A stretch of 64,000 bases of DNA, from positions 109,060,001 through 109,124,000 of the forward strand of contig NC_086097.1 of the NCBI RefSeq assembly GCF_963921235.1, given 5' to 3'. The notes under the pieces are model-generated. The model saw only the letters and a list, made by a program, of their open reading frames with translations. It had not been told where the DNA came from and searched no databases. The position numbers and the translations under genes were made by a program. Position 1 is the stretch's first letter, and each line of letters starts with the position of its first letter. Below are positions 13,375 to 45,929 of this stretch, one piece after another. Source of the stretch: Mobula hypostoma. Its lineage: Eukaryota.

Positions 13375-13410
13375 AGTCGACGTTTCAGGCCGAGACCCTT
13401 CGTCAGGGCT
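13375..13410 (-). ncRNA. Minimal type-I hammerhead motif (one stem I mismatch)
   Basis: Reverse complement AGCC-CTGACGA-AGGGTCTCGGCCT-GAAA-CGTC-GACT. Confidence 0.75.
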
Positions 13411-13665
13411 AACTGAAGGAAGAGCTAGTAAGAGATTTTAAAGTGGGCGGGGGAGGGGTAGATACCCCTTGCCCATCCTCTGGGTCCCCCCCCCCCCGCC
13501 TTTCTTTCTCCCCGGACCTCCTGTCCCATGATCCTCTCGTATCCCCTTTGTCAATCACCTGACCAGCGCTTGGCTCCATCCCTCCCCCTCCTGTCTTCTC
13601 CTATCATTTTGGGTCTCCCCCTCCCCTTCCCAGTTTCAAATCTCTTACTAGCTCTTCCTTCAGTT

Positions 13666-13701
13666 AGTCCTGACGAAGGGTCTCGGCCTGAAACGTCGAC
13701 T
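13666..13701 (+). ncRNA. Minimal type-I hammerhead ribozyme motif
   Basis: AGTC-CTGACGA-AGG gtctcgg CCT-GAAA-CG-TC-GACT: stem I AGUC/GACU, intact core, palindromic ACGU stem III, GUC cleavage triplet. Confidence 0.85.
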
Positions 13702-16304
13702 GTACCTCTTCCTAGAGGTGCTGCCTGGCCTGCTGTGTTCACCAGCAACTTTGATCTGTGTTGCTTGAATTTCCAGCATCTGCAGAATTCCTCATGTCTG
13801 TGGGTCAGGCAACATGGATGGAGGGAAATAGACAGTCAATGCTTCCAGTCAAGATCCTTTATCAGGATTGGAAAGAGAGAGAAGAGACTTTAAAAAAAAA
13901 TGAGGCAGAAGAGTTTAGTGGAAAGTAGAATAAAAGGGTGGAAGGAAGTAGTGTGGATGGTGGGCAGATTGAGAGGGTGGGGGAGGAAATCAGTGTAACT
14001 GGAAACAAATGAGTTAGAGGGGAGTGGTTCCTGGAAATAAGAGAAATCTATGTTCATGTTGTCAGGTTGGAGACTACCTCATATACCACCTTGGTAGTCT
14101 CCAAGCTGACAGAATGTACATCGATTTCTGTAACTTCCAGTAATCACTCCTGGCTTTTCCCTTTATTGTGGCTTTATCCCACAGGTTCATATCACCCCTT
14201 GTCATCCCATCACCGACTCTTTAAATCTGCCAATTGCCCAGACATTCCTCCCACTGATTCGTCTCGCCACCCCTTCCCTTCATTCCATTTTTATTCTCCT
14301 CTACCATAAAATTCCATCTTCTTTAGTCCTTTGTCACTTTCACCTATCATCTCCCAGTTTTTTCAAACCATTGTCAATCTCCTCGTTCCTCACCTACCTA
14401 TCACTTGGGTTTATTTATTGAGATACAGCACAGAGTGGGCTCTTTCTTGCACTGCCCCCAAGCCCTAATTTAACCCTTGCCTAATCACAGCACAATTTAC
14501 AATGACCAATTAACCTACCAACCCGTATATCTTTGGACTGTGGGAGGAAACTGCAGCACCCGGAGGAAATCCATGTGGCCAAGGGACAGACAGTGGTGGG
14601 AAATGAACCCATTTTGCTGGTTTTGGAAAGTGTTGTGCTAACCACTACGCTACTGTGGATCCACAAATCACCCGCCAGCTCTGGCTGCCCTCACCTCGTT
14701 ATACTGAATATTTCTTCTCTTTCTTTCCAGTCTCGATGAAGGGTTTTGATTTGAAACAGTGACTCTCCATTTCCCTCCATAGGTGTTGCCTGACCCACTT
14801 TGGTCTTCCAGTGTTTTGTACAGTGCTGGTAATGAGAGAATTTTTTTTCTTTAGACTGGAGCAAAATGATTAGTGGAGTTTCCCCGTAGTTCTTACAGAA
14901 TCACTGCTTTTCTTAATGATTTGGTCTTGATTGCCAAGGACTTAAATTGGATAATGTACACCTTGGATGCCTATTGAATTGTGAGGAGGATAATTAGAGA
15001 TGGAAGAGAGATATAGACAAGCTGGTGGAATAGGTGATTGCATGGCAGATGTAATGCTGCGAAATAAAGTGAGTTATTTTTTGCAGGGGAGTCATAACAA
15101 CAGAGTAATAAGGCAGGAAACTAGTCTATGTTGACATCCATAGTCATCCCAGTTGCCCACATTCGGCCCATGATCTACAAAACCCTTCACCTCCATGTGA
15201 TTTTCCAAATGTCTCACAGGTGTTGCAGTTGTACTCACTTGAACCACTTCCTTTTGCAACTCACTGCAGGTACTCCCTACCCTATGTGTAAGGAAATTAC
15301 CTCTCAACACTCTTTTCAATCTCACAACTCTTATCTTGTATCTGTGCCTTCTGCTTGTGGACTTCTCAACCCAGTGGAAAAGACTGTGACTGTCTGCCTT
15401 ATACATACCCCTAATGATTTTATAAACTTTTATAGGGTTACCTCTAATTCTGCTGTGTGCCAAGGAATACAAACCCAGGTTGGCCAACCTCTCCCTATAA
15501 ATCAGGCTGCATGCTCGCGAATCTCTTCTGCACCCTCTCCACTTTGCCAATGTCTTTTCTATAATGGGGTGACCGAAACTGTACCCAGTACTCCAAGTGT
15601 GGTCTCATTAGTGACCTGTATAGCTGCAACATAGTATCGCTACTGCAGAACTCAATACCGTGACTAATGAAGGCCAGCATACTAAATGCCTTTTTTTTAC
15701 CACCCTGTCACCTTGTCTACTCCCAGGTCTCAGTTCAATAACACTCGGCAGTGCGCTGCCATTAATTGCATAGGTCCTACCCTGGGATGACTGTCCAAAA
15801 TGCATCGCTTCACACAGGAGCCTGCTGTGAAATCCAGTTGCCATTCCTGTGCTCATTTCCCTAACTGATCAAGATGTCTTTGTAATTCATTTTAACATGC
15901 TTCATTGTCAGTAAGATCCTCTAATTTATGATCACTAGCAGACTTGCGAAATGTACCATGTACATTCATATCCAAATCACTTACATAAATAACAAACAAC
16001 ATGGGTCCCCACACTGACTCCTGGGACATCCCATCACTCACACATCTGTCGTCGGAGAATTGATCTTCAAACATCATCCTCTGCTTCCTCTACCATCAAG
16101 CAATTCTGAATTCACTTTGCCAGCTGCCCCAGAGTTCCACGAAAACTAAACTTTTAGATAACCTGCCATCTGAGGCATTGTCAAAGGCCATATCGACAAC
16201 ATCCACAGCTTTACCTTCATCTATCCCCTGAGGTAGTCATCCCTAGGCTACAGGGGTCAGAAAACTGGGTCACTGTCAAGAGAGGGAAGGGAAATGCCCG
16301 GATA

Positions 16305-16960
16305 GTGGAGAGCAGACCTGTAGCTGTCCCCCTCAGCAACAAATATCTTGTTCTGGGTGCTGTTGAGGGGGATGACCTGACAGGGGACGCCCACGGTGAC
16401 CGGGTCTCTGGCATTGAGCCTGGCGCTGTTGTGCAGGAGAGAAGGAGGGAGGAGAGAAGGAGGGAGAAGAGAAATGCGGTAGTCGTAGGGGATTCCATAG
16501 TCAGGGGAACAGACAGGAGATTCTGTAAGCCTGACAGAGATACCCGCATGGTGTGTTGCCTCCCAGGTGCCAGGGTACGGGACGTCTCGGATCGGGTCCT
16601 GAACATTCTAAAGGGGGAGGGTGAGCAGCTAGTTGTCTTGGTACATGTTGGTACCAATGACATAGATAGGACAAAGGAGAAGGTCCTGAAGAGAGATTTA
16701 CAGGAGTTAGGAAGGAAGCTGAGAAGCAGGACCTCCAGGGTAGTAATCTCGGGATTGCTACCTGTGCCACGTGCCAGCGAGGGCAAGAGTAGTCGGATCA
16801 GGCAGATGAATGTCTGGCTGAGAGACTGCTGTAGGGGGCAGGGCTTCAGATTCTTGGATAATTGGGATCTCTTCTGGGGGGAAGTATGACCTGCTCAAAA
16901 AGGACAGGTTACACCTGAACCCGAAAGGGACCAATGTCCTTGCGGGAAAGTTTAATGGAG
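16305..16960 (+). pseudogene. CR1 ORF1 SGNH/GDSL esterase domain (frameshifted near the C-terminus)
   Basis: VVVGDSIVRG...CLPGARVRD...VHVGTNDI. The D-x-L-H block (KDRLHLN) continues in another frame after the G-run near 16876. Confidence 0.88.
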
Positions 16961-18042
16961 CTGTTAGGGAGGGTTTAAACTAATTTGGCAGGGGGATGGG
17001 AACCGGAATGATAGAGCGGAGGAAGGGGAAAACAGAAATAAATCTAAGATAGTGAGCAGTAAAAATGTCAGGAAAGACAGGCAGGTGATGGGGCAAATTT
17101 GAAGCCATGGGGATGAGTTGCAATGCGATAAAGTTGCAGTGAAATCAAAGCGAAAAGTATCAAATACTGGTCTTAAGGTGTTGTACTTAAATGCACGCAG
17201 CATAAGGAATAAAGTGGATGATCTTGTTGTGCATCTACAGATTGGCAGGTATGATATTGTGGCCATCACTGAGACCTGGCTAAAGGATGCATGTCTCTGG
17301 GAGCTGAATGTCCAAGGATACATGGTGTATCGGAAGGATAGGAAGGTAGGCAGAGGGGAAGGCGTGGCTTAATTGGTAAGAAATGATATTAAGAAATGAT
17401 ATTAAATCATTAGAAAGAGGTGATATAGGATCGGAAGGTACAGAATCTTTATGGGTTGAGCTAAGAAATAACAGGGATAAAAGGACCCTGAAGGCAGTTA
17501 TTTATAGGCCTCCAAACAGCTGCAGGGATGTGGACTACAAATTACAACTGGAAATAGAAAAGGCTTTTCAGAAGGGCAGTGTTATGACAATTGTGGGGGA
17601 TTTTACCATGCGAGTGGATTGGGAAAATCAAGTCGGCACTGGATCTCAAGAGAGAGAATTTGTAGAATGTCTGCGAGATGGCTTTTTAGAACAGCTTGTT
17701 GTTGAGCTCACTAGGGGATCGGCTGTACTGGTTTGGGTATTGTGTAATGAACCGGAGGTGATTAGAGAGATTGAGGTGAAGGAACCCTGAGGAGGCAGTG
17801 ATCATAACATGATTGAGATCACTGTGAAATTAGAAAAAGAGAAGCCGAAATCTGATGTGTCAGTATTTCAGTGGAGTAAAGGAAATTACAGTGGCATGAG
17901 AGAGGAACTGGCTAAAGTTGACTGGAAAGGGACACTGACGGGAAAGACAGCAGAGCAGCAGTGGCTGGAGTTTGTGTGAGAAATGAGGAATGTGCAAGAC
18001 AGGTATATTCCATAAAAGAAGAAATTTTCGAGTGGAAAAAGG

Positions 18043-19981
18043 ATGCAACCATGGTTGACAAGAGAAGTCAAAGCCAAAGTTAAAGCAAAGGAGAGGGCAT
18101 ACAAGGAAGCAAAAATTAGTGGGAAGACAGACGATTGGGAAGTTTTTAAAACCTTACGAAAGGAAACCAAGAAGGTCATTAAGAGAGAAAAGATTAACTA
18201 TGAAAGGAAGCTAGCAAATACTATCAAAGAGGATACTAAAAGCTTTTTCAAGTATATAAAGAGTAAAAGACAGGTGAGAATAGATATAGGACCAGTAGAA
18301 AATGATGCTGGAGAAATTGTAATGGGAGATAAGGAGATGGCAGAGGAACTGAACGAGTATTTTGCATCAGTCTTTACTGAGGAAGACATCAGCAGTATAC
18401 CGGACACTCAAGGGTGGCAGGGAAGAGAAGTGTGCGCAGTCACAATTACAACAGAGAAACTACTCAGGAAGCTGAATAGGCTAAAGGTAGATAAATCTCC
18501 TGGACCAGATGGAATGCACCTTCGTGTTCTGAAGGAAGTAGCTGTGGAGATTGCGGAGGCATTAGCGATGATCTTTCAAAAGTCGATAGATTCTGGCATG
18601 GTTCCAGAAGACTGGAAGATTGCAAATGTCACTCCGCTATTTAAGAAGGGGGCAAGGACGCAAAAAGGAAATTATAGACCTGTTAGCTTGACATCGGTGG
18701 TTGGGAAGTTGTTGGAGTCGATTGTCAAGGATGAGGTTACAGAGTACCTGGAGGCATATGACAAGATAGGCAGAACTCAGCATGGATTCCTTAGAGGAAA
18801 ATCCTGCCTGACAAACCTATTACAATTTTTTGAGGAAATTACCAGTAGGCTAGACAAGGGAGATGCAGTGGGTGTTGTATATTTGGATTTTCAGAAGGCC
18901 TTTGACAAGGTGCCACACATGAGGCTACTTAACAAGATAAGAGCCCATGGAATTACGGGCAAGTTACATACGTGGATAGAGCGTTGGCTGATTGGCAGGA
19001 AACAGAAAGTGGGAATAAAGGGATCCTATTCTGGTTGGCTGCCGGTTACCAGTGGTGTTCCACAGGGATCAGTGTTGGGGCCGCTTCTTTTTACATTGTA
19101 CATCAACGATTTTGATTATGGAATAGATGGCTTTGTGGCTAAGTTTGCTGATGATACGAAGATAGGTGGAGGGGCCGGTAGTGCTGAGGAAACGGAGAGT
19201 CTGCAGAGAGACTTGGATAGATTGGAAGAATGGGCAGAGAAGTGGCAAATGAAGTACAATGTTGGAAAGTATATGGTTATGCACTTTGGCAGAAAAAATA
19301 AATGGGCAGACTATTATTTAAATGGGGAGAGAATTCAAAGTTCTGAGATGCAACGGGACTTGGGAGTCCTCGTACAGGATACCCTTAAAGTTAACCTCCA
19401 GGTTGAGTCAGTAGTGAAGAAGGCGAATGCAATGTTGGCATTCATTTCTAGAGGAATTGAGTATAGGAGCAGGGATGTGATGTTGAGGCTCTATAAGGTG
19501 CTGGTGAGACCTCACGGAGTACTGTGGGCAGTTTTGGTCTCCTTATTTAAGAAAGGATGTGCTGACGTTGGAGAGGGTACAGAGAAAATTCACTAGAATG
19601 ATTCCAGGAATGAGAGGGTTAATATATGAGGAACGTTTGTCCGCTCTTGGACTGTATTCCTTGGAGTTTAGAAGAATGAGGGGAGACCTCATAGAAACAT
19701 TTCGAATGTTAAAAGGCATGGACAGAGTGGATGTGGCAAAGTTGTTTCCCATGATGGGGGAGTCTAGCATGAGAGGGCATGACTTAAGGATTGAAGGGCT
19801 CCCATTCAGAACAAAAATGCAAAGAAATTTTTTTAGTCAGAGGGTGGTGAATCTATGGAATTTGTTGCCACAGGCAGCAGTGGAGGCCCAGTCATTGGGT
19901 GTATTTAAGGCAGAGATTGATAGGTATCTGAGTAGCCAGGGCATCAAAGGTTATGGTGAGAAGGCGGGGGAGTGGGACTAA
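18043..19981 (+). pseudogene. CR1 ORF2 reverse transcriptase and C-terminal region (517-aa open stretch, then a frameshift)
   Basis: ORFs 18043..19596 and 19559..19981 carry non-LTR RT motifs (QHGF, DFQKAFDKV, PQGSVLGP, FADD). Confidence 0.93.
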
Positions 19982-21936
19982 ATAGGAGAATGGATCAGCT
20001 CATGATAAAATGGCGGAGCAGACTCGATGGGCCGAATGACCTACTTCTGCTCCTTTGTCTTATGGTCTTATGGTCTTACTTAGCTTTTTGAAAAAAATCT
20101 CCAAAAGGCTCACCCGACATGACTTTCCACTCACAACCCACATTCACTGTTCCAGATCAGGCCTTGACTATCCAAAAGATGGTAGATCTTGTCCCTCAGA
20201 ATTTCTTCCAATAACTTGATAGCAACTAAAGTCAGGCTCACCGGGCTGTATACCCTGGCCTGTCTTTGCTACACCTCTTGAACAATAGAGCAGCATCAGC
20301 TATATGCCAGTCTTCTGTCACATCACTAATGATAAAGCAAATATCTCTACAAAAGCCTCTACAATTTCTTCTCTGGCCTTCCAAAACGCTTGTGGGTTTG
20401 GTCAGTCCCTGAGAACTTGCTTACCTTCAAGGCTGCAAATAAGTTCTTCCTTGTAATATGCAAATGTTCCAAGACCTACTTATTACCCACATTTCTTTGG
20501 CATTCTTGATATTCTCTTTAGTAAGCACAAAGGAGAAATAGACATTAAAAGTCTTGGTTATTTCCTGAAGCTCCACACATCGACGCCTTGATGGTCATAA
20601 GGAGGACCTTGTCCCTCCCTGGTCACAATTTTACTGTTAATATAATGCAAAAACCTCGGAATTATTTTTAACCCTGCCTGCTAAATCCATCTCAGAAACG
20701 TTTTTTGCCATTCTAACTTCCCTTTTTAGCCTGCTCTCCAGCTACTGTAGCATTTGGATTCTTGTTATGACCCTTTTAAAGTTGTCCTGTTTATTACCTA
20801 TTCCTTTGCTTTTATAGAGAGTCACATAGTCGCCCCTAGCTAGATCCTGCCTAATGCCCTCAAAGCTGGCCTTTGTCTATTTTTTCCATGACTATTTTAA
20901 AACTAATAGTGAATTTAAAACTAAAACTGAAACTGGACCAGTAGAGCTCTCCAAATGCTACTTCAATTACTTGGCCCACCACATTCCCTAAGAGGAGGCC
21001 AGTATTGCTCCTCCTTGAGCAGGCTCCTGTGTATATTCTGTGAGGAAGCTGTCTTGGATATACCACACAAATTCTGCCCTTTCCAGGACCTTTGCACTCT
21101 ACATGGCCTAATCAGTACTGGGATAATGGATGGCACAATAGCATAGTGGCTGGTGCATTGCTTTAGAGCACCAAAGGCTTGGGTTCAATTCTGTAAGGAG
21201 TTTGTACACATGGATTTCCTCCAGGTGCTCTGGTTTCCTCCCACATTCCAAAGATGTACAGGTTAGTAGCTTACTAGGCTTACTAAGGTGTAGTTGGGGG
21301 GTGTTAACTTGTTGGGCCAAAAGGGCCTGTTGCTGTGATGTATGTCTAAATAAAAAAAATTGATATCTCTCACCAGTACTGATCTACTATAAGTGTAAGA
21401 AAGAATATAGACCTATGAGCACAATTCTAAGGTGCAATAAGATATATATGGACATAACTTGTCAAATGAAAGACCGGTTGAGAAAATTATTTAAAGCCTC
21501 ATACCATGATCGTGGGCTTTATAAACAGATGCATGGAGTACATGAGTAAGTGAGTTCTCATGAACATGGTCTACCTAGCAATGAACTACAGTATTCAGTC
21601 CTGGGTGGCTCTGCTCAGAAAGGCTATAAACCTTTGCCAAGTGTGTAAAAGAGGTTTACCAAAATATTCTAGGAAGTATTATATATGAATAATGTGGATA
21701 CTTGGGTTTATTCTCCTAGCTCTGTTCTCATAAGTGGAAGGTTATGAGGAGCTCTGAGGGGGAATTGAAATCCTGAAGCAGATGGCCAGAACAAATCAAG
21801 AGAAGCAAGGCAATTGTCAAGAACTAAGGACGATGAATGAATGTGTTCAGATGAAAAAAAAAGTGAATGAAGAGCAACACACTTAAAAGTTGCTGGTGAA
21901 CGCAGCAGGCCAGGCAGCATCTCTAGGAAGAGGTGC

Positions 21937-21972
21937 AGTCGACGTTTCAGGCCGAGACCCTTCGTCAGGACT
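21937..21972 (-). ncRNA. Minimal type-I hammerhead motif in a solo Penelope insert (21874-22001)
   Basis: Reverse complement is identical to 13666-13701. Insert flanked by AAAGTGAATGAAGA (21860-21873 and 22002-22015). Confidence 0.85.
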
Positions 21973-22784
21973 AACTGAAGGAGGAGTGAGTAAGGGATTT
22001 GAAAGTGAATGAAGATTTTTTTTACTAAGGTTTATAATGCACCTGCAGAGATTCTGTTGAGATCTGGAGAAGTATCGGAAAGGAAAGCGTTTGCAAAGCA
22101 GTGGACAGGGCTAGTCAGGGGGAATAGCTGGAATGAACCTGACGAAAGCCAGTACAGGCTTGATTGACTGAATAGCCTCATTTGCGCTGTAGCTATTTAT
22201 TTCATGATTTGCCTTCCCCCAAATGTCTAAATCTTCATACACCACACCTATAGTCTCTTTTTTTAAAGGTTTCCAGACTTGCTATTGGTGTGTCTCATGA
22301 ATCAATACAGTTTCTTTAGGTAGTGGAAAACCATGGTTATGAGGCAAATTGTGCACGAAGGAAAATCGACTGTATAAGTGAGGTAGCGTAGCAGTTAGCA
22401 ATGGCTTTCTAGCACTAACCTGTAAGATTGGGATGCGATTCCCACTACGGCCATAGCGAGTTTGCATGTTCCCTTTCGACCACTTGAGTTTCCTCCAGAT
22501 GCTGTGGGTTCATCCCACATTCCAGAGGTGTAGGTTTAGGGTTACTGAGTTCTGAGCATGCTATGATGGCACCAGAAGCACAGCAACACTTGCAGGCTGC
22601 CCAGAGCAATCCTCACTGATTCGATTTGAGTCAAAACAACACATTTCACTGTACGTTTTGATGTACTGTACATGTGATAAATAAAGCTAATCTGATCTTT
22701 AAAGTGGAATAAAATGCCGCAGATCGATTTTTAATGTGGGAAATGTGAGATTAGAAGGGAAGGATAGAAGAACATGCTTTTTAA

Positions 22785-23075
22785 CGGTAGTGTAGCAGTT
22801 AAATAATTTTATTGCAGCTCGGCATGTCAGAGTTCGGAGTTCAATTCCAGTGTCCTTGGTAAGAAGTTTGTACGTCCTTTGTGTGAGAGTGTGTGTTTCC
22901 CCCACGTGCTCAACTTTCTTCCTACAATCCAAAGACGTACCATTTAGCAGGTTAATTGGTCACTGTAAATTGCCCTGTGATTAGGCTAGGGCTAAATCAG
23001 TGGGTTGCTGGGTGATACTGCTCATTGGGCTAGAAGGGCCTGTTCCACACTGTATCTCTATATAAATAAATAAAT
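22785..23075 (+). mobile_element. tRNA-derived V-SINE (HE1-like); other copies ~10420-10600(-), 14405-14657(-), 21130-21355(+), 22380-22695(+), 25262-25510(+), 27780-28470(+, split), 28540-28860(+), 33105-33315(-), 34270-34560(-), 40590-40900(+), 45990-46170(-), 59640-59830(-)
   Basis: Pol III A/B-box-like head (ggtagtgtagc...gttcaattcc), conserved core ggtttcctccrggtgctccggtttcctcccacaktccaaagaygt, and an A-rich tail. Confidence 0.8.
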
Positions 23076-23701
23076 AGTTAAAGAATTTCAAATGTGGATT
23101 ACTGCAGAAGATCTCGGTATGTTCAATTTTGAAATATAGAAATTAAGTACTTAGGTTCAGTTGGCAAATGGGATGCTGTTCCTGACTGGAGTACAAAGTA
23201 AGGAATATTTGCTGAGATTTTGCAGGGCTCTGGTGAAAATTCAGTTGGAATACTATAATTAGTTTTGATCTCTGAACCAAAATACTTGTCTTGGAGTTGT
23301 TAGGATGTATTCTGCAGTTAGGCTATATATCAAATATTAACTTCACCATCAACCAATCTTCAGGCTTGAACATGGATTATAGATTGAATTGAAAAAGCAG
23401 CCTTGAACAGTAGTTTTCTTGGAACTGTGGACTGGAATTGACTACAAACCAGACAATGCTGATTAACATTGATTTTGGGTGTCTGGAATGTGAGTGCAAA
23501 GAAGGAGGTGTGTAAAAGCTATGCATAATTCAAAAGAAGTATTATAGATACATTGTAACTATAGAGGTGTCCTGCTCTTACCTTTGACCTTTAGCATATG
23601 AAAAAGGGTTGTGTAATATTTGTTCAGCCAGGCCTTTTCCAACAGAGCGTCTCAATATGATGCCTGCTGCTCGTTTTTGTTGAATAAAATACTTCTATAT
23701 C

Positions 23702-23739
23702 CAGTCCTGACGAAGGGTCTCGGCCTGAAACGTCGACTG
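23702..23739 (+). ncRNA. Minimal type-I hammerhead motif in a solo Penelope insert (23704-23798)
   Basis: CAGTC-CTGACGA-AGGGTCTCGGCCT-GAAA-CGTC-GACTG. Insert flanked by TACTTCTATATCCA (23690-23703 and 23799-23812). Confidence 0.87.
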
Positions 23740-24311
23740 CACCTCTTCCTACAGATGCTGCTTGGCCTGCTGCGTTCACCAGCAACTTTAATGTGTGTTA
23801 CTTCTATATCCACTAGCTTCAATGTCTCTCCAGTGATTTTGTTCATGCTATAACAGGTCAGGAATCAGTGTCGTCTAGATTCACCATGTTTGTTCTTATA
23901 AGAGTAGGTTGAGCTATGAATAGCAATTGAGCAAGTTTGGCTATAGTAACTGGAATTTGGGAGAGTTCTTAAGCGTTCTTACTGAGGCATGTGGGATTCC
24001 AATAAATCTGCTGGAAGGTCCTGGTTCTGAAACATGGTTTACTGCCCTTTCCACAGAGGTTGCCTGACCTGCTGAGTTTTTCCTATTGTTTTCTATTTCT
24101 CTTTCAGATTTCTACCACATGCAGTTATTTCTGATTTTCACGTGAGATTCTAAGTGATTTTGACAGGGTAGATGCTGACAGATTGTTTCTTTTAGCTGTG
24201 GAATCCAACACTAGCAGAGCATTTGACTATGTCCATTAGTTTTCATTCACTAATGTTATTATTGCAGATGTATCATTACAACACTAACTTTGCATTTTCT
24301 AAACTGAACAG

Positions 24312-24378
24312 AATGTACCGACGTACTTCAAATATGGTTGGACTAAGCTACCCTCCTTCAGTCATCGATGTCTTAAAG
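24312..24378 (+). CDS. PDE1C: PDE1C exon C (67 nt)
   Basis: cag|A...AAG|gtactt. MYRRTSNMVGLSYPPSVIDVLK, also visible inside ORF 24223..24435. Confidence 0.93.
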
Positions 24379-26209: not shown

Positions 26210-26705
26210 ACATGAGAGATTGTGCAGATGCTGGAAATTCAAAGCAACATGCACACAAAATACTGGAGGAACTCAGCAGACCAGGTAGCATCTATGGACA
26301 GTTGAAGTTTCAGGCTGAGACCCTTCTTTAGGGCTGACCATCGATTTTTTGGACTGAGACCCTTCTTCAGGAGTGCTGAAGAAGAGGAGAAGAGAGTGGA
26401 CCACAGGAGAAAAGGAAGGAGGAGGGGGAGGGGACCCAGAAGGAAGTGATAGGCAGGTGAGAAGGGGTAAGAGGCCAGAGTGGGAATAGGAGGGGAGAGA
26501 AAGGGAAAAATTATTTTACTGGAAGGAGAAATCGATAACCATGCTTTTGGTTGGAGGCTACCCAGATGGAATACGAGGTGTTGCTCCTCCATTCTGAGGG
26601 TGGCCCTTCTTTTCCAGTCCTGAAGAAGGGTCTCGGCCTGAAATGTTGACTGCCTACTCACTTCCATGGATGCTGCCTGATCTCCAGCATTTTGTATGTG
26701 TTGCT
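26210..26705 (-). mobile_element. Penelope-like 3' end with a GIY-YIG C-terminal remnant and an inverted arm; related decayed copies at ~500-1330, 24010-24130, 24610-24920, 25590-25720, 32700-32830, 35110-35500, 35930-36210, 37760-37860
   Basis: ORF 26239..26790 contains RATLRMEEQHLVFHLGSLQP. Copies share the terminal motif gatgctgcctgacctgctgagttcctccagcattttgtgtgttgc. Confidence 0.75.
26615..26652 (+). ncRNA. Hammerhead motif variant (GUU triplet)
   Basis: CAGTC-CTGAAGA-AGGGTCTCGGCCT-GAAA-TG-TT-GACTG. Confidence 0.7.
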
Positions 26706-27391
26706 TCAGGCAGCCTTGCTGCTTTGCATGCCCCTGTGCACTTTTCTTTCTCATGCAGCAGCCATTTGCCCCTGGTCTCCCCGAAGGCACAGAGAGAACT
26801 TAGTATACATTTCTGGTCAGTGTGGGTAATATCGATCTCTAGATACTTATATCTATAAGTAGATATAGAGGGTATTTACAAGGATGGTGCCAGGGCTGGA
26901 GATTTTTAGTGATGATACCAAATTATCTAGGATGCTGTTGTTCTCTTTAAGGTAAAAGATGATGAGGAAAGATTTAGTTGAAGTGTAAAATCTTAAAATG
27001 TTTGGGTAGTGTGAATAAGAAGGTCCTATTGCCATCAACAAAAAAGGGCACATTTATGATAGTTCCTAGAGGGAATTTGAGGGATTAGAAAAAATTCCAT
27101 ATGTAGTAAAGGTCCAGAAATTGGTGCCTGAAAAGATAAAACCATGGACTTCAAGGCTTCATACTTGTGATCTGTGGGATGGTGGTGGGGGAGTGGTGGA
27201 TGTTAGATCTCTTCCTCGATATGAAGAGGTAAATGTTGCATCCTGTGCCATTCATATCTGGTTCCATGATTCTGTGTTCCATGTTCCTTTGCCCTTGTGG
27301 GCGAACTAATAGAAACCCCAGTGGTATTGCGCAGAACAGTGATGAAGTTAATCAGTCATGATGAAGTGGTCTCCTTTACTCTGTTTTTCAG

Positions 27392-27508
27392 AACATTGAT
27401 AAATGGACCTTCAACGTATTTGCACTGAATGAGGCCTGTGGAGAACACACACTTAGATTTGTTGTTTATGAACTTTTCACCAGATATGATCTCATCAGTC
27501 GCTTCAAG
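27392..27508 (+). CDS. PDE1C: PDE1C exon D (117 nt), start of the catalytic domain
   Basis: cag|AAC...AAG|gtgagt. NIDKWTFNVFALNEACGEHTLRFVVYELFTRYDLISRFK. Confidence 0.94.
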
Positions 27509-29549
27509 GTGAGTAGAAATGTTTTGACCTGCTTGAATGTACAATCATGTTGTTTACATATTGCAGTGCAAAATGTATAAAAATGCAACCCATTTGTTAC
27601 AGAATGCAAAAAAAAGTACTTTGAAATTCCTTTGGAAAATAAAGATCTTCAAATCTACCTGCTCTTTAAATACCTCAAGTGATCAGTTCTCCACAACTCT
27701 TCGGTTTAGAAATTTGAGAATTCCTGAGTTTCACCACCCTGCATGGGATGGGATTTAGATGATCACCCATCATCCTTCTGTGTTCTAAAGAGCTCAGTCT
27801 CACAGCACCGGTGACCTGGGTTCAACCCTGATCTTATGGTGTTCTTTGCATATTCTCCCTCGACTGGTGGTTTTCCTCTGGGTGCTCTGATTTCCTCGCA
27901 TGTTCCAAAGAGTGAGGGGAGGGGGATCTCATTGAAACCCATTGAATGTTGAAGGGCCTCGATAGAGTGGATGTGGAGAGGATTTTTCATATGATGGGGT
28001 CATGTAAGACCTGAGGACATAGTCTCAGAATAGAGGGACGTCCATTTAGAATGGAGAAGACAAGGAATTTCTTTAGCCAGAGAGAGGTAAATCTGTGGAA
28101 TTCGTTGCCACAGATGGCTGTGGAGGCCAAGTCATTGGGTATATTTAAGGCAGGGGTTGATAGATTCTTGATTAGTCAGGGCATGAAGGGATACAGGGAA
28201 ATGGCAAAAAATTGGGGCTGAGAGGGTAATGGATTAGCCATGCTGAAATGGCAGCACAGATTCAATGGACCAAATGGCCTATTTCTGCTCTTATGTCATA
28301 TGGTCTTATGTGTGGGTCAGTAGGTGGACTGGCTGTTATAAATTGCCTGTGGTATATGGAATTAAGTGAAAAAATGGAGAGAATCGAATGAGATTAATAT
28401 GGGATTGGTATAAATGGATGGTTGATCATTGGCATGGACAGTGGGCTGTAGGACCTGCTTCCATACTGTGTGATTCTGATCCTAGGAATACACATTCCTA
28501 GGGATAGCATAGGAGCGTGAGCGAGCGGGGAGGTTGTTGCTATGGTAGCAGAGTTGTTAGCGCAATGCTTTACAGCACCAGTGATTGGAATATTGGGGTT
28601 CAGTTCCCACTGCTGTCTGTAAGGAGCTTGTCATTCCTCCCAGTGACTGCATGGGTTTCCTCTCACGCTCCAGTCCCTCCCCCACATTCCAAAGAAGTAC
28701 GGTTCAGGATTACTAACTTGTGGGCCTGCTATACCTGTGCTGGAAGCATGGTGATACTTGTGGGCTGCTCCCGGCACGTCCTTGGACCGTGCTGGTCACT
28801 GGCGCAAATGGCACGTTTCACTGGATGTTGCGATGTTTCTCTGTACATGTGACAAAGTTAACTTTACGACTCACTTTTCGGTTGATGGAATCAAGGCTAG
28901 TGACATTTAAGTGCTGGAGAGAGCAAAAGAAAATAGTTCTGATTTGTTGAAAATTGATCTGGAGAAAGTATCTGATTGTCCATGTGCCAATCTCAGATAG
29001 AGAATTGTCTGTAAGTGCTACGCTCTTTGAGCTGCAGGTTGTTAAAAAGCAACAAGTACATGGCAAAAACAGCTGATGAAGAAGGGATCATGATGGAAGC
29101 CGCTGTGTAATATTACAAATGATGTTCATAATGCCTGGACAGTAGTGTTTGTAGATATCATACTGGAACCTACGTCATTACTTCATCACTCAGAATATGT
29201 TTTGGCTGTTACTTGTGCAATATAAGGCATTTATAAAATATAAGTCCCATTATAAAATGGCACATGCATTATTAAATCATGGATTATCTCCATTTTTAGT
29301 TTCAATCAAAGCCTATAATCTTCCCAACAGTTTTATAGAAATTTTAATGACAAACATTCCTTGTTACTCAAGCAAAGTACAAAGAAACCTCTCTACTTTT
29401 TCAGGGCATTCCTTATTGAGCAAAAGATGATGTTAAAAGATTTTCTAATAATTTTAAGAACCATGGAAGTGGGATGCTTTCATGAGAAACATAATTGATC
29501 TCTACAGGGAACTCTCTGGTAAATAAATGAATCTGAATATGGTCCTCAT

Positions 29550-31530
29550 CACTATAGTCATAGAACGATACAGCACGGACACAGGCCATTCTGCCCAATG
29601 AGTGTCTCCCAACCACAATGCCCATGAAGCTAGTCCCAATTTTCTGTGTTTGGAAGATATCCCTCGAAGTCCCATACCTCCATGTACCTATCCAATGCTT
29701 CTTAAATGATACTATTGATACTACTGTACCTGCCTCAGACTGCTCATTCCATATACTCACCACCCTCGGCGGGGCAGTGTTGCTTCTCTTGTCCTAGCAA
29801 TGTTCTCATAAATCTTTTCGGCCTTCTTTCCATTTTAACCATGCCTTTCATATAACAGAGTGACCAAAACTGCACATACTACTCTCAAGTGTAGCCTCAC
29901 CAAGCACTTATCAACTGCAACATAATGTCCCAATTCATCTACAATGCTCTGACTGATGAGGGCCAGCATGCTAAAGATATTTTTCACCACCCTGATTACA
30001 AGTGATACTGCTTTTAATGAACAAAGCACTCACACTCCTATGTGTCTCTGTTCCAATGCACTCCCTAGTATACACTCCTTAGTATAAGTCCTATATTGAT
30101 TCAAATTTCCAAAATGCATCATCTCACGTTTATCTGTATTGAAATCTATTTGGCACCCCTTAATCTACTTTGCTAACTGATTTACCTAATTATCTCTCCC
30201 TTGATTCCACGTGATCTAACCTTCCAGACCAGCCTCTCACAGGTGGACCTTGTTGAAGGCATTGCTAAATTACAAATAGATGACTATGCTGCCCTACCCT
30301 TGTATACCTGTTTGGTTACCTCATCAAAAATTCTGAAAGTTTTGTCATGCACAACGCACCACGCACAAATCCATGATGATTCCTCTTGATCAGATTCTGT
30401 CTATCCAAAATACTAGCAAGTCCTGTCCCTCAGGACTTCCTTCAGTAACTTCCCTGCTACTGATTTCAGGCCGATCAACCTATAGTTCTCACTTGTCCTT
30501 GTTACATTTCCAAAACAATGGAATAACATTAGCCACCTTCCAGTCTTCAGGAATTTTACCAGTGGCTAACTAAGAATCAAATATCTCTGCAGGGGCCTCC
30601 CACAAAGTCCAACAATGTACTCATCAGGCCCTATAAATTTATCCACTTTAATATGCCTCAGGACTACAAATACCTCCTCTCTGCTAACATGAATGTATTC
30701 CACACCGTCTCCACTTGCTTCCTTCCCTCTTGAGCACCACGATTTTCTCTTCAATAAACACTAAGAAGAAATAGTCATTAAAAATCCCACCCATCTCCTG
30801 CCTAACTCTCTCCTTAGGGAGCCTTTTTCTTTTAATCTGGCTGTGGAGAGCATTCTGACAGGCTGCATCACTGTCTGGTATGGAGGGGCTACCACACAGG
30901 ACTAAAAGAATCTGCAGAAGGTTGTAAATCTCGTCAGCTCCATCTTGGGCACTAGCTTGAGAAGTACCCAGGACATCTTCAGGGAGCGGTGTCTCAGAAA
31001 GGCAGCGTCCATTATTAAGGACCTCCAGCACCCAGGGCATGCCCTTTACTCACTGTCACCATCAGGTAGGAGGTACGGAAGCCTGAAGGCACACACTCAG
31101 CAATTCAGGAACAGCTTCTTCCCCTCTACCATCCGATTCCTAAATGGACATTGAAGCTTTGGACATGACCTCACTTTTTTAATATACAGTATTTCTGTTT
31201 TTGCATATTTTTAAAAATCTATTCAATATACCTAATTGATTTACTTGTTTATTTATCATTATGTTTCATTTTATTTATTGTTATTTTTTTCACTCTCTGC
31301 TAGATTATTGAACTGCTGCTGCTAAGTTAACAAATTTCACAACAGATGCTGGTGATAATAAACCTGATTCGGATTCTATTGAATCTCTTTGTATTTTCCT
31401 GGATCTGACCTGCCAGACCCATTTTCGTACCCTCTCTTTGGCCTCCCAATTTCCCTCTATTCTTAATCTTTTAATAGTCATCAAGAGATTTACTTTCCCT
31501 GACCTCTAAAACCCAAAGTGGGCTTCCTTC
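29550..31530 (-). mobile_element. Decayed CR1 LINE with a + strand Rex1/Babar 3' fragment inserted at ~30840-31380
   Basis: CR1 remnants (LALISQSI, IKVDKFIGPD). The insert reads ESILTGCITVWYG...ERCLRKAASIIKDLQHPGH..LSPSGRRY..FRNSFFP and ends in a (GATTC) tail. Confidence 0.8.
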
Positions 31531-33566
31531 ATTCAAGTTCAAGTTCAAGTTTAATTGTCATTGAATCATTTATGAATGCCCTTGAATACAGCCAATTGAA
31601 ACAGTATTCCTCTAGGGTCACGGTGCAAAACACAGTACCTACAGACACTCACAGTACAAGGCACTTATAGCACATACTGTATAAGGTAGCAGTAAACATA
31701 CAGTCACACCAAACAATATAATATAGTGCCAAGTCCCTGTGTGTCACGTCCTATAGATTGATGTTGTTGGCAAGAACAAGCCTACTGCAGTCTGCAGACA
31801 AATGTAATCCAGCTTGTCTTCCACCCAATGAACACTGGAGGCAGCACTGAAAGGAGCGGCCAGCACCCAGTCAGCACGGACTCCAGCGAGCCCAACACAT
31901 CTCTACTGTCTCCCACACCACCTTCGGCATCTCTACCCCGGGTTCTGCAACAGGCATGAGGCCTACTCTGCGCTAAACCCAAGGCCACACAGCTCCCCCA
32001 CCATCGGTCTCACCAATGAACCGGTGAATTGGGCTTGCAGTATTCCATATTACCAATGTTGAACAGGGTCTTGTAATCACATGGAAAATGTGATCACATG
32101 CTCCATTTGTTAGACTGCACATGCCTTGTCACACTGATTCCAACATCTTCCTGTAGCTGGCAGCAACACGATCCACAGATATTTGTTGTGTCCCATGTTG
32201 TATAACATGGGCAATCATAGTCTTTCCATCACCATGAATGTTCCTGGCAGATGTTTCTACAGAACTGGTTGTCCATTCCCTTCTTCTAGGCAGTGCCTTT
32301 ACAAGATGGTTGACCCCAGCCATTATCAATACTCTTCAGAGAATGTCTGGTGTCAGTGGTCTCATAACCAGGACTTGTGATATGTACCAACTGCTCATGC
32401 GACCATCCACTACCTGCTCCCATGGCTTCGTGTAGCTCTGATTGGGATGGGGAGGCTAAGCGGGTGTTGCACCTTACCCAAGGGTGACCTGCAGGCTAGT
32501 GGAGGGAAAGAGTGTCTACACCTCCTTTAGTAGAGACATATCTCCACCCCGCCACCCAAACGTTATTTATATATGTTTATTAACAATGTCACAAAGAAGC
32601 TTCTGATCTCCTTAGGTTTCAGCATCAGATTTGGAATGAGAAATGTTAAGAATTATACAACTAACAGGTTAGGGTGTATTTGTTGTAAGAGAAATCGAGT
32701 TAACATTTCAGGTTGAAGACCTTCTGTCAATTCTGACGTAGGGACGCTGACTAAAACATTTCCCCTAGTTCTCTTTCCACTGATGTGCTGGGTGTTTCCA
32801 GCCTTTTCTGGTTTTGTTTCTGATTTCCACTTTTATTAGAAATGGCCTCCTTAAACCCATTGGTTATGTCTCCTTTCTATCAGTGGGAAGAGGGTTGGGT
32901 CAGGTTAAGAGCAGCATGGGATTATACCTATAACCAGACTGTATGTAGATTAGTGATACTAACAGCTAACCTAGCATTATTGATCTGCTTTAGGACACAA
33001 ATTTCTCATTCATCTTCATAATTTGCCATGGTGGACATGAAGATTAGGTCTTTAAGGTTTTTAGACCAAAGTCACAATTACTAAAGACTTCACAAATATC
33101 TTTTTGTTTATTTATTGAGATACATTGTGGAATAGGCCCTTCTGGCCCTTTGAGCCACCCTGCCCAGCAGTCCCCAAATGTAATCCTAGTCAATTATGGG
33201 ACAATTTACAATGACCAACTAACCTGTCAACTGGTATGTCTTTGGACTGTGGGAGGAAACCAGAGCACCTGGAGGAAACCCATGCAGCCTGGCTAGAATG
33301 TACAAACTCCTTACTTGTTAACTTTATTTGAACAGAATTCAAAAGACATTTTGTTCGGTTTATTTGTGTTTATATTTTCTCTTCTTTTATTAGTTTGAGC
33401 TTTTTTTCTTGCTTCACTCAACAGAGTTTTAGTAGAACATATGGGAGATTGTCCCAGCTTTATATAATCTGATCACTGCAAGCCAATAAAACAGACTGCA
33501 TTTCAGCATTTTATACCAGTAAATTTTCTCTGCTGTCTCTATATCTGATGTTTTATTTCATTTCAG

Positions 33567-33707
33567 ATTCCTATTTCTTCCCTTGTGTCATTAATTGAAG
33601 CCCTGGAAGCTGGATATACAAAATACAAAAATCCCTATCATAATCTGCTACATGCAGCAGATGTTACCCAAACAGTCCATTCACTTCTGCTGAGAACTGG
33701 TGTTGTG
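33567..33707 (+). CDS. PDE1C: PDE1C exon E (141 nt), YHN..HAADV motif
   Basis: cag|ATT...GTG|gtaagt. IPISSLVSLIEALEAGYTKYKNPYHNLLHAADVTQTVHSLLLRTGVV. Confidence 0.95.
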
Positions 33708-36700
33708 GTAAGTACCATCCGGGTAATCCCTCTGTAAAATTGCATTTCTACAGCTAGTCTTCCAAAACCAAGGTACAAAGGCAACAGCTCCTTCCTTCAG
33801 GCTGCGGGTTCTAGTGAGTTTAACCGTTGACCAGGTTGTAATTGTCATGCCCCGATGTTGTGTTGCCTGAATGAGCTGCACGATCTAAATGTTGTACATT
33901 TGCGTTGTACATTGTTACAGATTTGGGTGCTTTCATCAGCTCAGAGTGTCAGCAGCATTGTGCTGCAGAGGAACCTGGCATAAATGGACAGGTACAACCT
34001 GTCCATATATACGTAGAGATGAGAGTTTGATGAATTTAACCTCTATATTTTCACTTTAATCTTATGAAACTTGTGTACAGAGATTTAAAAAATCTTACAT
34101 TTCAAAAGACATAAAGCAAGACAGTATGGATACAGGCACTTTGGCCCATCAAGTCCATGCCAACCATGAGCCCACTATCTAGTCCCAATTTCCTGTGTTT
34201 GGTCCATATCCCTGTAAGGCCTGCCCCTGCATTAACCACTTGGAACTCACCTGGTAGTGAGTTCTTTCTATTTATTAATTTACTTACTTATTGAGATACA
34301 GTGTGGGATAGGCCGTTCCAGCACTTCGAGCCACAACAGTCAGTAATCTCCCAGTTTAATTCCAGTCTAATCATGGGACAATTCACAATGACACATTAAC
34401 CTACTGGTACCGTTTTTTGACTGTGGGAGGAAACCAGAGCACCCGGAGGAAACCCATGCAGTCACAGGGTGAACATACAAACTCCTTATAGGCAGTGGCG
34501 GGAATTAAACCCAGATTGCTTGTACTATAAAATGTTGTGCTAGCCACTACACTACCATGTCATGACACTCCCTGTTGCCCCTCAGGTTCCTTTTAATTTT
34601 TTCTCCTCTCACTGGAAACATATGCCCCTAGATCTGGACTCCCCTACACTGGTGTAAAAGAAACTGCTACCATCCACCTTATCTATACCCCTCATGATTT
34701 TATAAATGTCTATGTCACCTCTCACTCCAAGGAACAAAGACCTCGCCTTGCCAGCTGCTCTCTATACTCAAGCCCTCCTGGCCACGCCCTCCTAAATCTT
34801 TTCTGCATTCTTTACAGTTTAACCATATTTTTCCTGTAACAGGGGAACAAAACTGTACACTGTTCTAGATGTGGCCTCACTAACAACATATACAACTGCA
34901 GCATGATGTCCCGACTCTTGTAGTCAAAGTCCTGACTGATGAAGGCCAGCACGCTGAGTGCCTTTTTCACCACCATGTCTATGTGTGATACTGCATACAT
35001 GTGCACGGTTATGAATATGTTCCCATACGTGAAGGTTTTGTACCAACGTATATTGTCCATCTGGATTTGGGTGCTTTCAGAGGTGTGTGTTTATATGTGT
35101 TCATATTCACCCTTAGGTTGGAGGAGCAACACTTTATATTCTGTTTGCCTCCAACCGGATAGCATGAATGTTAATTTCTACTTACAGTAAAAAAAATTCC
35201 CCCTGCCTCTTCTTCTATTCCCCACTCTTACCTCTTCTGACCTGCCTATCACTGCCCCCCCCGAGTTCCCTCCTCCGTCCCTTTCTCTTATAGTCCACTC
35301 TCCTCTCCTATCAGTTTCCAGCTAGCCTCCTCCTCCCTCAACTGTGGCGTCTTCCCCCTTGTTTCTCAGCCCTGATGAAGGATCTCAGCCTGAACTGCCA
35401 ACTGTTTATTTATTTCCACGGATGCTGCCTAACCTGCTGAGTTCCTCCAGCATTTTGTGCGTGTTGCTTTGGACTTCCATCATCTGCAGAATTTCTCGTG
35501 TTTATGTTCATATTTTCCTGTTGAATTTCTATAGGCTTCTCATAAACCCCAATTACATATATACATAGGAAATGGGGTTGAAAGGGAAAATAAATCAGCC
35601 ATGATTGAAGGTGCAGCAGACCCAAGGGGCTGAATGGCTTCATTCTGCTCCTATGTCTTATGATTTAAAGAGAAATAGAAACAGGGATAGTAAGATGGTA
35701 CACAGAGAGGAAACAAGACAGAGTGTGGGAATGAGCAGTTTTGTTTTTCAGGATGCAGCCTTTGATGAGGAGCACAGGCATTAGTGCTGTTCACAGTCTA
35801 TATCAGTGAGTCATATGGAAGGATCATGTGCAATATATCCAAGTTGGTGAATACAAAACTGGATGGCATTGTAGATGAATGGGCAAGGATATATCAGATG
35901 AAATACTAAGTAAAACAGAAAGTTATTTCGCAACATGAGAGAATCTGCAGATGCTGGAAATCCAAAGCAACACACACAAAGTGGCAGGTCAGGCAGTATC
36001 TATGGAAAAAAATGAACAGTGAACATTTCAGGCTTAGAGACTTCATCTGTATTTGTGTTCAGCTTCAAGCGGTCTATTGTAAACAAAAAAAAAATTCTGA
36101 GGAAGCAACACCTGTCCTGATGAAGGGTCTGGGCCTGAAATGTCAGCTGTTCACTCTTTTCCATGGATGCTGCCTGGTCTGCTAAGTTCCTTCAGCATTT
36201 TGTGTGTACTGCTAATAAAAAATTATTTACTTTGAGAGAAAAATAGGAAAATGAAATTTTTAAAAATAAAAATTGAAGGATATTGGTGCTGAGGAAGAAC
36301 AGGGTATTCTTGCTGATGAACTACCAAAAGTTAATAGGCAAGTTAAGTAAACAATTAGGAAGTTGGATGGCTTTCCTTTATTGCAGGAAGGGTTGAGTTC
36401 TCTTTATGTCTTTCTCCAATTACATAGCGCCCTGGTGAAAACGCATATGGAACATTTTGTACAGGTCAAAAGGAGGATAGACTTCTGGTTCACGGATTTT
36501 AGTGAAGGTTCACAAACTGGTTCACAGAATGATGGGTTCGTACTGTGAAGAATGATTAAGCAGACTAGACTTCACTAGCTTAAAATGACTGGTGGCCTGT
36601 TAAAGCATTTATGATTTTTAAAAGGTTTACCAAGATAAGTTGTTGATGATTTTCTCTTGCTTGGGTGTCCAGAACCATGGGTCACAATTAGTGGATCCAA

Positions 36701-45862: not shown

Positions 45863-45875
45863 ATGTGTGTGTGTA

Positions 45876-45929
<54 letters not shown>

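Follow-up and report, generated by a model that had tools for sequence, protein, structure and literature searches.

The host gene and its hammerhead motifs

The window, by which we mean the whole 64,000-nucleotide stretch of Mobula hypostoma DNA analysed here, contains a PDE1C-like gene whose introns host a dispersed family of small RNA motifs. Eight collinear PDE1 exons were found on the plus strand. One of these (8909-9088) matches proteins named PDE1C at 98% identity and three proteins named PDE1A or 1A-like at 100%. The earlier note placed the motifs in PDE1C introns. The intronic location stands, as all 16 of the copy positions tested are intronic and at least 240 nucleotides from any exon. 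The gene name stands only in part, the label not being unanimous, and PDE1C-like is the safe form. The gene and the best-preserved motifs are the following.

2152..60358, plus strand: host gene, PDE1C-like; tblastn exon matches near 2152, 8906, 24304, 27368, 33561, 41166, 46353 and 60233
13375..13410, minus strand: young motif with an unbroken core and a single mismatch in helix I, at position 2.2
13666..13701, plus strand: complete minimal hammerhead of the young subfamily, sense to the PDE1 pre-mRNA, in an inverted arm of the 13313-13799 insertion
21937..21972, minus strand: complete young motif, antisense to the gene
23703..23738, plus strand: complete young motif in sense orientation, with the cut predicted after 23734; the best candidate for a bench test
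26616..26651, plus strand: older-type motif; helices I and II pair, but AUGU has replaced the helix III palindrome and the triplet is GUU
36113..36148, plus strand: older motif, core intact, closing pair of helix I broken

Four complete hammerheads had been claimed, and all four were recovered in two ways. A pattern scan of the window gives exactly four matches, at 13666-13701(+), 23703-23738(+), 26616-26651(+) and 21972-21937(-). A structure descriptor (a 4-bp helix I, the core, 0-1 extra nucleotide, a helix II of at least 3 bp, paired 15.2/16.2 and UH) also matches four times, where 200 Markov simulations average 0.005 matches per 64 kb. Of the positions given before, 23702 and 26615 are one base early, at the fifth helix I pair. 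Copies with an intact core and a damaged stem I, reported at 13375(-) and 36117(+), are indeed seen at 13410-13375(-) and 36113-36148(+), and our own placement of the predicted cut, after the GUC at 23734, coincides with the earlier one. The ACGU stem III and GUC triplet do not extend to 26616, which has AUGU and GUU.

The count of about seven further decayed copies was too low. In the window nhmmer finds 25 matches, 18 with E<0.01; 11 are seeds that match by construction; the reversed window used as a control gives two, with E-values of 6.9 and 7.8. In total there are about 20 copies, including 24843(+) and 32733(+), evenly divided between the strands (10:10), 18 of them within the range that the earlier note covered. 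Pattern-scan loci elsewhere (none and then five in metagenomes, one in prokaryote genomes) lack nhmmer or blastn support and all six were rejected as chance; viral sequences gave no loci.

A check against hammerhead models had been proposed, and its outcome depends on the model. Rfam gives no hammerhead family at E<=10, either on the window or on 23670-23810 (other Rfam matches number 27 and 0, respectively), while the minimal descriptor matches four times. Because the hammerhead models of Rfam expect helix III, and because a descriptor of the published kind does match, we do not take the Rfam result as a refutation.

The CUGANGA, GAAA and UH core is intact in 6 of 11 in-register copies, three further rows being out of register and left out of this count. 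Helix I has 5 bp in 13666, 21972, 23703 and 26616 and is broken in the other copies. There is no helix III, and the palindromic CG at 15.2/16.2 is present in 4/4 young copies and 0/15 older aligned copies. Helix II has 4 bp with two wobbles, compared with 7-8 bp in Schistosoma (PMC4209133). An extra A lies between positions 9 and 10.1 in all 12 aligned copies, and an extra nucleotide at this point is a published hallmark of the minimal hammerheads of Penelope-like elements (PLEs; PMC4209133).

The earlier note saw a possible weakness in the A-U or G.U closure of helix II. This caveat is misplaced. The extra A belongs to the family, and the bulged G.U register is the more stable by computed energies (-2.3 vs -1.1 kcal/mol). 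G10.1.U11.1 closes helix II in 10 of 11 distinct rows. In Fig. S3 of PMC4209133, as read, the consensus has C at 11.1, helix II is closed by A-U in 3/56 members and by G.U in 8/56. The state of the young ray subfamily is thus a published minority one, and we rejected the idea that it is a new variant. No match in the window has a strict G10.1-C11.1 pair, and in the published hammerhead literature searched, as far as accessible, no activity rate for the G10.1.U11.1 wobble was found.

Simple CpG decay is an unlikely origin for U11.1 in the young copies, as TG is present in 4/4 while four other CpG sites of the motif are kept in all four. Older copies have TG in nine cases and CA in three at 11.1-12, which is compatible with decay (p 0.15). 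The three CA copies, together with one insertion that holds both TG and CA, point to a CG ancestor for the older copies. Among 40 of 54 rows from contigs of four public runs, none is a T>C at 23726 (position 11.1).

Insertions of a Penelope-like element

The motifs lie in insertions with the following structures.

532..593, minus strand: decayed fragment beyond the range of the earlier note (E 0.004)
13234..14825: older inverted insertion with decayed motifs 13869- and 14729+; target duplication 13223-13233 / 14826-14836 (11/11); the arms meet at 14078/14079, where both strands keep GIY-YIG C-terminal remnants
13313..13799: young insertion of two head-to-head arms (the minus arm without a tail, the plus arm with one) that meet at 13462/13463, lying inside the older copy; target duplication 13303-13317 / 13800-13814 (14/15)
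21874..22001, minus strand: 5'-truncated, tail-less pseudo-LTR (pLTR) insertion; target duplication 21860-21873 / 22002-22015 (14/14)
23704..23798, plus strand: 95-bp tail-less pLTR insertion, its first base within the 5' side of helix I; target duplication 23690-23703 / 23799-23812 (14/14)
24014..24140, plus strand: decayed tailed copy
24609..24922: decayed head-to-head pair, 24713- and 24843+ (motif internally deleted)
25595..25724, plus strand: decayed tailed copy, position 12 changed to A
26210..26706: inverted insertion, no target duplication found; plus arm bears 26616+; minus arm has a GIY-YIG end (26515-26601), a pyrimidine-rich UTR, a partly duplicated decayed motif (26379-, 26335-) and a tail
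32665..32830: strongly decayed, overlapping head-to-head pair
35108..35504, plus strand: GIY-YIG end, UTR, decayed motif (35368) and tail
35933..36212: head-to-head pair, possibly separate events, of tailed 36053- and, at a distance of 60 nt, tail-less 36113+
37760..37853, minus strand: decayed copy beyond the range of the earlier note

The order of parts is an endonuclease end, a pyrimidine-rich UTR, the hammerhead, the pLTR end and an optional tail of about 35 nt. The window holds six head-to-head arrangements and two classes of 3' end, tailed and tail-less. Both classes also appear in the public-run contigs, as loose ends behind 23799 and 23803, and two such classes have already been described for PLEs (PMC11167929, PMC8557442). 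The scores of these target duplications, of 11-15 bp, all exceed the highest value among 300 random window pairs, a null whose maximum of 10 was reached in 3/300. By the same null, 8 of about 13 candidate insertions have no duplication above chance, and the candidate 10-bp duplication of 35108..35504 (35098 / 35505) equals the maximum of the chance range. Tandem units are limited to one 44-nt partial duplication with both halves decayed, the other copies being spaced by kilobases. The window contains no full-length element, full ORF or direct-repeat pLTR pair.

A profile built from five window fragments finds the Mobula hypostoma protein P0123 (PF26215, E 3.7e-13). This protein carries an RT-type RYIDD and a CxxC-YIGET motif, and its Pfam GIY-YIG match (E 4.6e-4) does not reach the curated cutoff. 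Parts of it align at 26613-, 14078-, 14075+ and 35019+, and its read-through end matches the young UTR at 13462-13528 with 87-92% identity. ORF-end remnants lie 200-270 nt upstream of 26379-, 35368+ and 13869-. The surviving protein remnant in the window comprises the last 12-40 residues, and the link to the ORF rests on these. A second search returned 42 proteins, of which only four have CxxC-YIGxT; many of the rest resemble host proteins to which this C-terminal stretch is attached. A homologue search with P0122 alone found none, and Pfam gives nothing for a candidate N-terminal ORF read in the frame of the pLTR (13666-13797).

The earlier assignment of the motifs to the minimal type-I hammerheads of a Penelope-like element therefore gains from four kinds of sequence evidence. 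The coding link to P0123, the target duplications, the inverted pairs and the tail support the view that the motifs are the 3' ends, or pLTRs, of such an element. Its clade is likely Neptune-type, judging by a CX2-5CxxC linker that is known from the homologues (P0123, P0135 and P0140) rather than from the window copies. This linker is found in Neptune and Nematis and is absent from Penelope and Poseidon.

The comparisons that follow refer to the accessible parts of the papers cited. The ray motifs share with published PLE minimal hammerheads (Cervera and De la Pena 2014, PMC4209133) the core, the extra nucleotide at 9/10.1, a palindromic 15.2/16.2 without helix III and a short helix I (published range 2-6 bp). 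Scattered solitary copies, and pairs on opposite strands separated by 100-700 bp, are common to both as well. In Fig. S3 of that paper, the row for Acropora Neptune agrees with the ray motif in its core, its 4-bp helix II and its cleavage triplet. Cartilaginous fish are absent from its 56 published rows. In the literature, as far as it could be accessed, the one paper that came up for shark Penelope hammerheads uses "shark" for the shape of the fold, and the species list of a preprint (10.64898/2026.07.22.740005) may already include the present family.

Like the ray copies, endonuclease-bearing (EN+) PLE insertions (PMC3846280, PMC8557442, PMC8969392) show 5' truncation, head-to-head inverted pLTRs, an optional tail at one end, target duplications of variable length and nesting into another PLE; unlike canonical elements of this type, the window holds 3' scraps only. 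The Poseidon element PAc of Anolis carolinensis (Frangieh et al. 2024, PMC11167929) likewise carries a hammerhead in its pLTR, ends at either of two 3' positions some 30-40 nt from each other, and has insertions that run through the uncut motif. However, the PAc ORF begins inside the motif, whereas the ray element is known here from 3' remnants, and PAc priming is described as non-homologous, whereas the ray duplications overlap the element ends by a few bases.

Decay, folding and the question of activity

We are confident that these are minimal hammerheads in PLE terminal repeats, carried into PDE1 introns by truncated and inverted insertions and likely to be inert passengers there. By analogy with the anole element, a GIY-YIG endonuclease would nick the target and reverse transcription would begin at one of two internal sites, giving tail-less or tailed ends. 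The template would be uncut RNA, because the copies run through the cleavage site. When transcribed in tandem from the parent element, the motif would show weak cleavage, either as a dimer or helped by the protein of the element. In the PDE1 pre-mRNA, sense copies would have no close dimer partner and are predicted to pair with upstream antisense arms or the upstream pyrimidine tract.

Recent mobility, as claimed earlier, holds only in relative terms. There is a young subfamily of four copies, all of which retain every core base, but its members have diverged from one another by 5-8%, and 6/98 bases are mismatched between the two arms of one insertion. Among the older aligned copies, position 15.2-16.2 has CG in 0/15, TG in six and CA in six. 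Across 11 distinct window copies, none of the nine pairs has changed on both sides, and covariation in the motif pairs is no higher than in shuffles. The copies are decaying and are not master sequences; CpG-type transitions without compensation in the older ones fit neutral decay.

Folding models predict that each core-intact sense copy is trapped by an upstream antisense partner. With the antisense arm present, the predicted probability of helix I is 0.00 for the sense copies 13666, 26616 and 36113, and 13666 is predicted to be fully paired with its upstream arm. The duplex of 23703 with 21873-21975 is predicted at -196 kcal/mol, but this partner is 1.7 kb distant and trapping is not assured. 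Such models ignore protein help and co-transcriptional kinetics. Published activity of PLE hammerheads is low and confined to dimers (PMC4209133, accessible part). Ribozyme activity at these loci is unlikely: tandem dimers are absent, no compensatory change was seen among the decaying copies, the helix III CG is lost in 15/15 older aligned copies, and antisense partners lie upstream. The suggestion of working ribozymes finds no support in the arrangement of the copies or in the CpG-type decay of their catalytic geometry.

Could a young sense copy of the same origin, above all 23703, still cleave the PDE1 pre-mRNA slowly and trim its expression? We think this improbable. Cleavage at a low rate would involve trans-dimers with many other copies, or help from the protein of the element. 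Related runs contain many copies of the family (308-2394 contigs), and the anole motif does cleave when protein is present, although there cleavage is dispensable for insertion in vitro (PMC11167929). Copy 23703 has a complete core, a 5-bp helix I and the ACGU palindrome, and its 5' truncation removed an inhibitory upstream tract. In its local context helices I and II reach predicted probabilities of about 0.3-0.6, compared with about 0 for 13666 and 21972 with at least 15 nt of upstream UTR. However, the ACGU self-duplex contributes no more than -1.7 kcal/mol, whereas a rival palindrome spanning the cut site reaches -7.5, and in the modelled monomer core bases are paired with the cleavage triplet. 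Furthermore, there is no strand bias against sense copies, and the anole RNA-seq data, in the accessible part of PMC11167929, show no reads ending at the cut.

It is less probable still that the short units form a non-autonomous, retrozyme- or SINE-like family spreading through self-cleaved circular RNA. Some insertions measure merely 95-128 bp and have clean duplications. Non-LTR retrozymes also have a type I hammerhead, are non-coding, derive from PLE pLTRs and occur in one chondrichthyan (preprint 10.64898/2026.07.22.740005, accessible part). Retrozymes, however, form tandem arrays in which every unit has its motif, whereas the ray copies are dispersed or inverted and spaced by kilobases, with no tandem units of complete motifs. 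Their 5' ends range from the ORF end to the edge of helix I, with none at the cut, and endonuclease remnants are attached to copies. For these loci the retrozyme reading is already largely refuted.

That one copy is a domesticated intronic ribozyme, as in the amniote RECK, CTCL or DTNB introns, is extremely improbable: the gene is conserved, the position intronic and such domestication described (PMC6155905, accessible part), but the canonical three-helix fold is lacking (no helix III, no Rfam match), the intact copies are the youngest and have perfect duplications, and, as a weak point, contigs of four runs cover motif and exon piecewise, none of the pieces listed bridging the motif and unique flank.

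The 5' ends and the biology of the family

The 5' ends of the copies have an odd distribution: they gather at the edge of helix I and none is at the cut site. In short copies they cluster on the 5' side of helix I, some 30 nt before the scissile bond, and 7 of 18 copies have no element-like sequence upstream of the motif. Among the downstream-profile matches with E<0.01, starts at the cut number 0/16. The helix I edge lies directly behind the pyrimidine tract and a YAG, which together resemble the splice site at the same place in Penelope of Drosophila virilis. A tentative idea, which we hold to be doubtful, is that the hammerhead fold serves to mark a boundary for integration rather than to cut.

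The reading of the copies as likely inert PLE relics reveals neither a new ribozyme class nor a regulatory element. It extends the described motif to the ray lineage and shows how densely PLE relics can fill vertebrate introns without visible cost. The family also offers material, in the form of thousands of dated insertions whose junctions are exact, for testing whether PLE hammerheads cut the transposition template in vivo, a point left open in PMC8557442 (accessible part). If the boundary idea is true, the retention of a barely active ribozyme by PLEs would be accounted for by the processing of RNA, or the release of cDNA, at the edge of helix I.

Motif copies and the element that carries them

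The earlier note claimed four complete minimal hammerheads (min-HHRs) and two more with an intact core and a damaged stem I. Exact matches to its pattern in the window bear out the first claim, at 13666(+), 23703(+), 26616(+) and 21972-21937(-) (n=4), and the two core-intact copies with a broken helix I are indeed present at 13410-13375(-) and 36113(+). The proposed check against hammerhead models gave a divided answer. An Rfam search found no hammerhead in the window, and a structure descriptor built after the published min-HHR descriptor returned 4 matches, the exact-pattern copies themselves, with 0.005 expected. With G10.1-C11.1 made obligatory, this descriptor had 0 matches in the window. 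A profile search, in which 11 matches were themselves seeds, gave 25 matches at E<=10 (18/25 at E<0.01), and the reversed window gave two, with E near 7. A longer profile recovers about 20 motif copies, 10 per strand.

The motif lies at the head of a ~100-nt unit, which finishes at a GTTGC-type end or ~35 nt beyond. Where sequence upstream of the motif is kept, it comprises a ~200-nt pyrimidine-rich stretch and the final codons of an ORF. A profile from five such ORF-end fragments finds a Mobula hypostoma protein, P0123 (E 3.7e-13), which supports the assignment to Penelope-like elements (PLEs). P0123 contains an RT-type motif, PF26215, a CX2-5CxxC linker and a GIY-YIG domain, the last with a Pfam score slightly under the family cutoff. 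Aligned back onto the window it matches four remnants; at its read-through end it agrees with a young copy's UTR at 87-92%. This linker distinguishes Neptune/Nematis from Poseidon in the available part of PMC8557442, and the P0123 sequence points to a Neptune or Nematis element, not Poseidon. A second search returned 42 proteins, with a CxxC-YIGxT motif in 4/42; several others are host-like with the same C-terminal stretch attached. This PLE endonuclease stretch occurs on the database proteins P0124, P0127, P0128, P0138 and P0148 (ULK1, VKOR, GPCR, LAMP, RecQ5-like), where it may reflect exonisation or mis-annotation. We also observed a decayed GIY-YIG-like remnant at 930-1052 (+) (E 0.007 to P0123), close to a decayed motif at 593 (-).

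Helix II closure and family membership

It had been cautioned that helix II closes noncanonically, with A-U, or with G.U after an extra A. This caveat falls away. As far as the accessible text of Cervera and De la Pena (PMC4209133) goes, a min-HHR is recognised by its core, by one extra nucleotide between 9 and 10.1, by a G10.1-C11.1 pair that is conserved and by a palindrome replacing helix III; an extra A in the window copies is what this definition leads one to expect. Of the two registers, G.U (4 bp) is predicted to be the more stable, at -2.3 kcal/mol against -1.1 for A-U, and C at 11.1 instead of U would give -3.9 kcal/mol. Among the 56 published rows of their Fig. S3, as counted from the PDF text, G.U closes 8/56 and A-U 3/56, and cartilaginous fish are absent from these rows.

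The young copies (13666+, 13410-, 21972- and 23703+) have U11.1 in 4/4 while the remaining motif CpGs survive, so U11.1 was probably inherited in this subfamily. In older copies the 11.1-12 dinucleotide is TG (9), CA (3), TA (1), GG (1) or a gap (1); TG and CA occur together in one partial tandem, and this implies that these copies had a CG ancestor.

Insertion anatomy and 5' ends

Target duplications and head-to-head arrangements
21874-22001, target duplication, 14/14 bases
23704-23798, target duplication, 14/14 bases
13313-13799, target duplication, 14/15 bases
13234-14825, target duplication, 11/11 bases
13410/13666, head-to-head
13869/14729, head-to-head
24713/24843, head-to-head
26335/26616, head-to-head
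32736/32733, head-to-head
36053/36113, head-to-head

We tested 15 region pairs for duplications; beyond these four, one scored 10 and ten scored <=8, with a top score of 10 among 300 random window pairs. Among the six head-to-head arrangements, duplication shows a single-event origin only for 13410/13666 and 13869/14729; the young pair 13410/13666 is nested within an older copy. In the available portions of PMC3846280, PMC8969392 and PMC8557442, PLE insertions are characterised by inverted terminal repeats (pLTRs), by duplications of variable length and, optionally, by a tail of 30-40 bp. Cervera and De la Pena noted opposite-strand min-HHR pairs 100-700 bp apart (PMC4209133, in part), and the anole element's tail is described as the segment from one internal RT start site to the other (PMC11167929, in part).

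A downstream-only profile gave 16 significant matches, one of them with an internal deletion (two weak matches were excluded), and none of the 16 begins at the cut. Element-like sequence upstream of helix I is missing in 7/18 copies, and decay in 5/7 of these leaves their limits ill-defined. In the 23703 copy, target duplication sets the start at 23704. In 4 of the 9 public runs listed, contigs accumulate over 23698-23800 (308-2394 per run) and include both 3'-end classes, which points to a repeat with many copies in related organisms; this bears on copy number and not on expression. In two runs, 25 and 20 contigs have a loose end before 23704, counts similar to those at the known 3' end (26 and 23), the former confounded because the reference carries host flank upstream of 23703. 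The helix I edge comes right after a pyrimidine tract and YAG, whose AG is also needed for helix I pairing; in D. virilis an intron end falls at helix I (PMC4209133, in part). The apparent clustering of 5' ends at helix I, with none at the cut, stands out as an oddity.

The host gene and the fate of the motifs

Eight collinear PDE1 exons lie on the + strand. The repeat-derived proteins have their best matches in Mobula and Hypanus, by which the host is a cartilaginous fish and probably a ray. The motifs had been placed inside PDE1C introns, and all 16 positions tested are intronic. PDE1C is the majority label: named matches to the second exon are mostly PDE1C, at 98% identity, but three at 100% are named 1A or 1A-like. 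All significant PLE copies but one fall within a 25-kb stretch (13234-37900), and the last 26 kb (38000-64000) has none; pairing and nesting account for part of this clustering.

Other repeats are also present. A LINE at 16158-20072 (+), which we take to be CR1-like, has an esterase-like ORF1 (Lipase_GDSL_2/OSK) and a 526-aa RVT_1 frame; related copies lie near 57000-59450 (-) and 2800-6160 (-), with long inverted matches between copies. Fragments of a second LINE type (11762-11893, 30846-31013, 44699-44983, 51094-51976) match P0142, a database protein, around its ALKBH8_N-annotated part. Dispersed SINE-like families (D6, D10, D11, D12) occur at 21207, 22481, 22888, 25373, 27864, 28648 and 40702, and on the opposite strand at 10430, 14489, 24713, 33198 and 34375; PLE insertions contain two of these copies (14400-14650, 24714-24755). 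The GC-rich end (62540-64000, 59%), reminiscent of a broken LTR retroelement, has a primer-site-like and a protease-like motif; a Pfam search of four frames there gave no match. A (TG)n(TA)n microsatellite and a GT-rich array 3' of exon 7 occupy 45860-45940 and 46660-47435; Rfam microRNA matches at the microsatellite are spurious, under gathering scores.

The lineage had been called recently mobile. This holds only in a relative sense, because identity among the youngest copies is 92-95% and 6/98 bases separate the two arms of a single event. Helix III has lost its CG in 15/15 older aligned copies, with TG and CA equally frequent, and no base pair shows a two-sided (compensatory) change across 11 distinct copies. 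In the accessible parts of the literature, min-HHR monomers are inactive and dimers weak (PMC4209133), and the anole motif depends on protein for cleavage and is dispensable for insertion in vitro (PMC11167929). Sense copies here are kilobases apart, and the ACGU duplex is predicted at -1.7 kcal/mol, while a palindrome that spans the cut and competes with it is predicted at -7.5 kcal/mol.

Our folding results are equilibrium predictions with protein not included. Adding at least 10 nt of the element's own UTR is predicted to abolish the helices of 13666, 21972 and 26616, and adding the upstream antisense arm is predicted to trap 13666, 26616 and 36113 in long double strands. The exception is 23703, where truncation removed the upstream UTR and helices I and II are predicted with a probability of about 0.3-0.6; it is also predicted to be able to pair with 21873-21975. 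A young sense copy might conceivably cleave at a low level, though this is improbable.

Long double-stranded RNA is predicted in PDE1 pre-mRNA from the inverted arms at 13308-13768, 21873-23802, 26210-26706 and 35933-36212, and could possibly serve as an editing substrate. The motifs are real, Penelope-like and of known kind, and these copies are very probably inert relics in a PDE1 gene.
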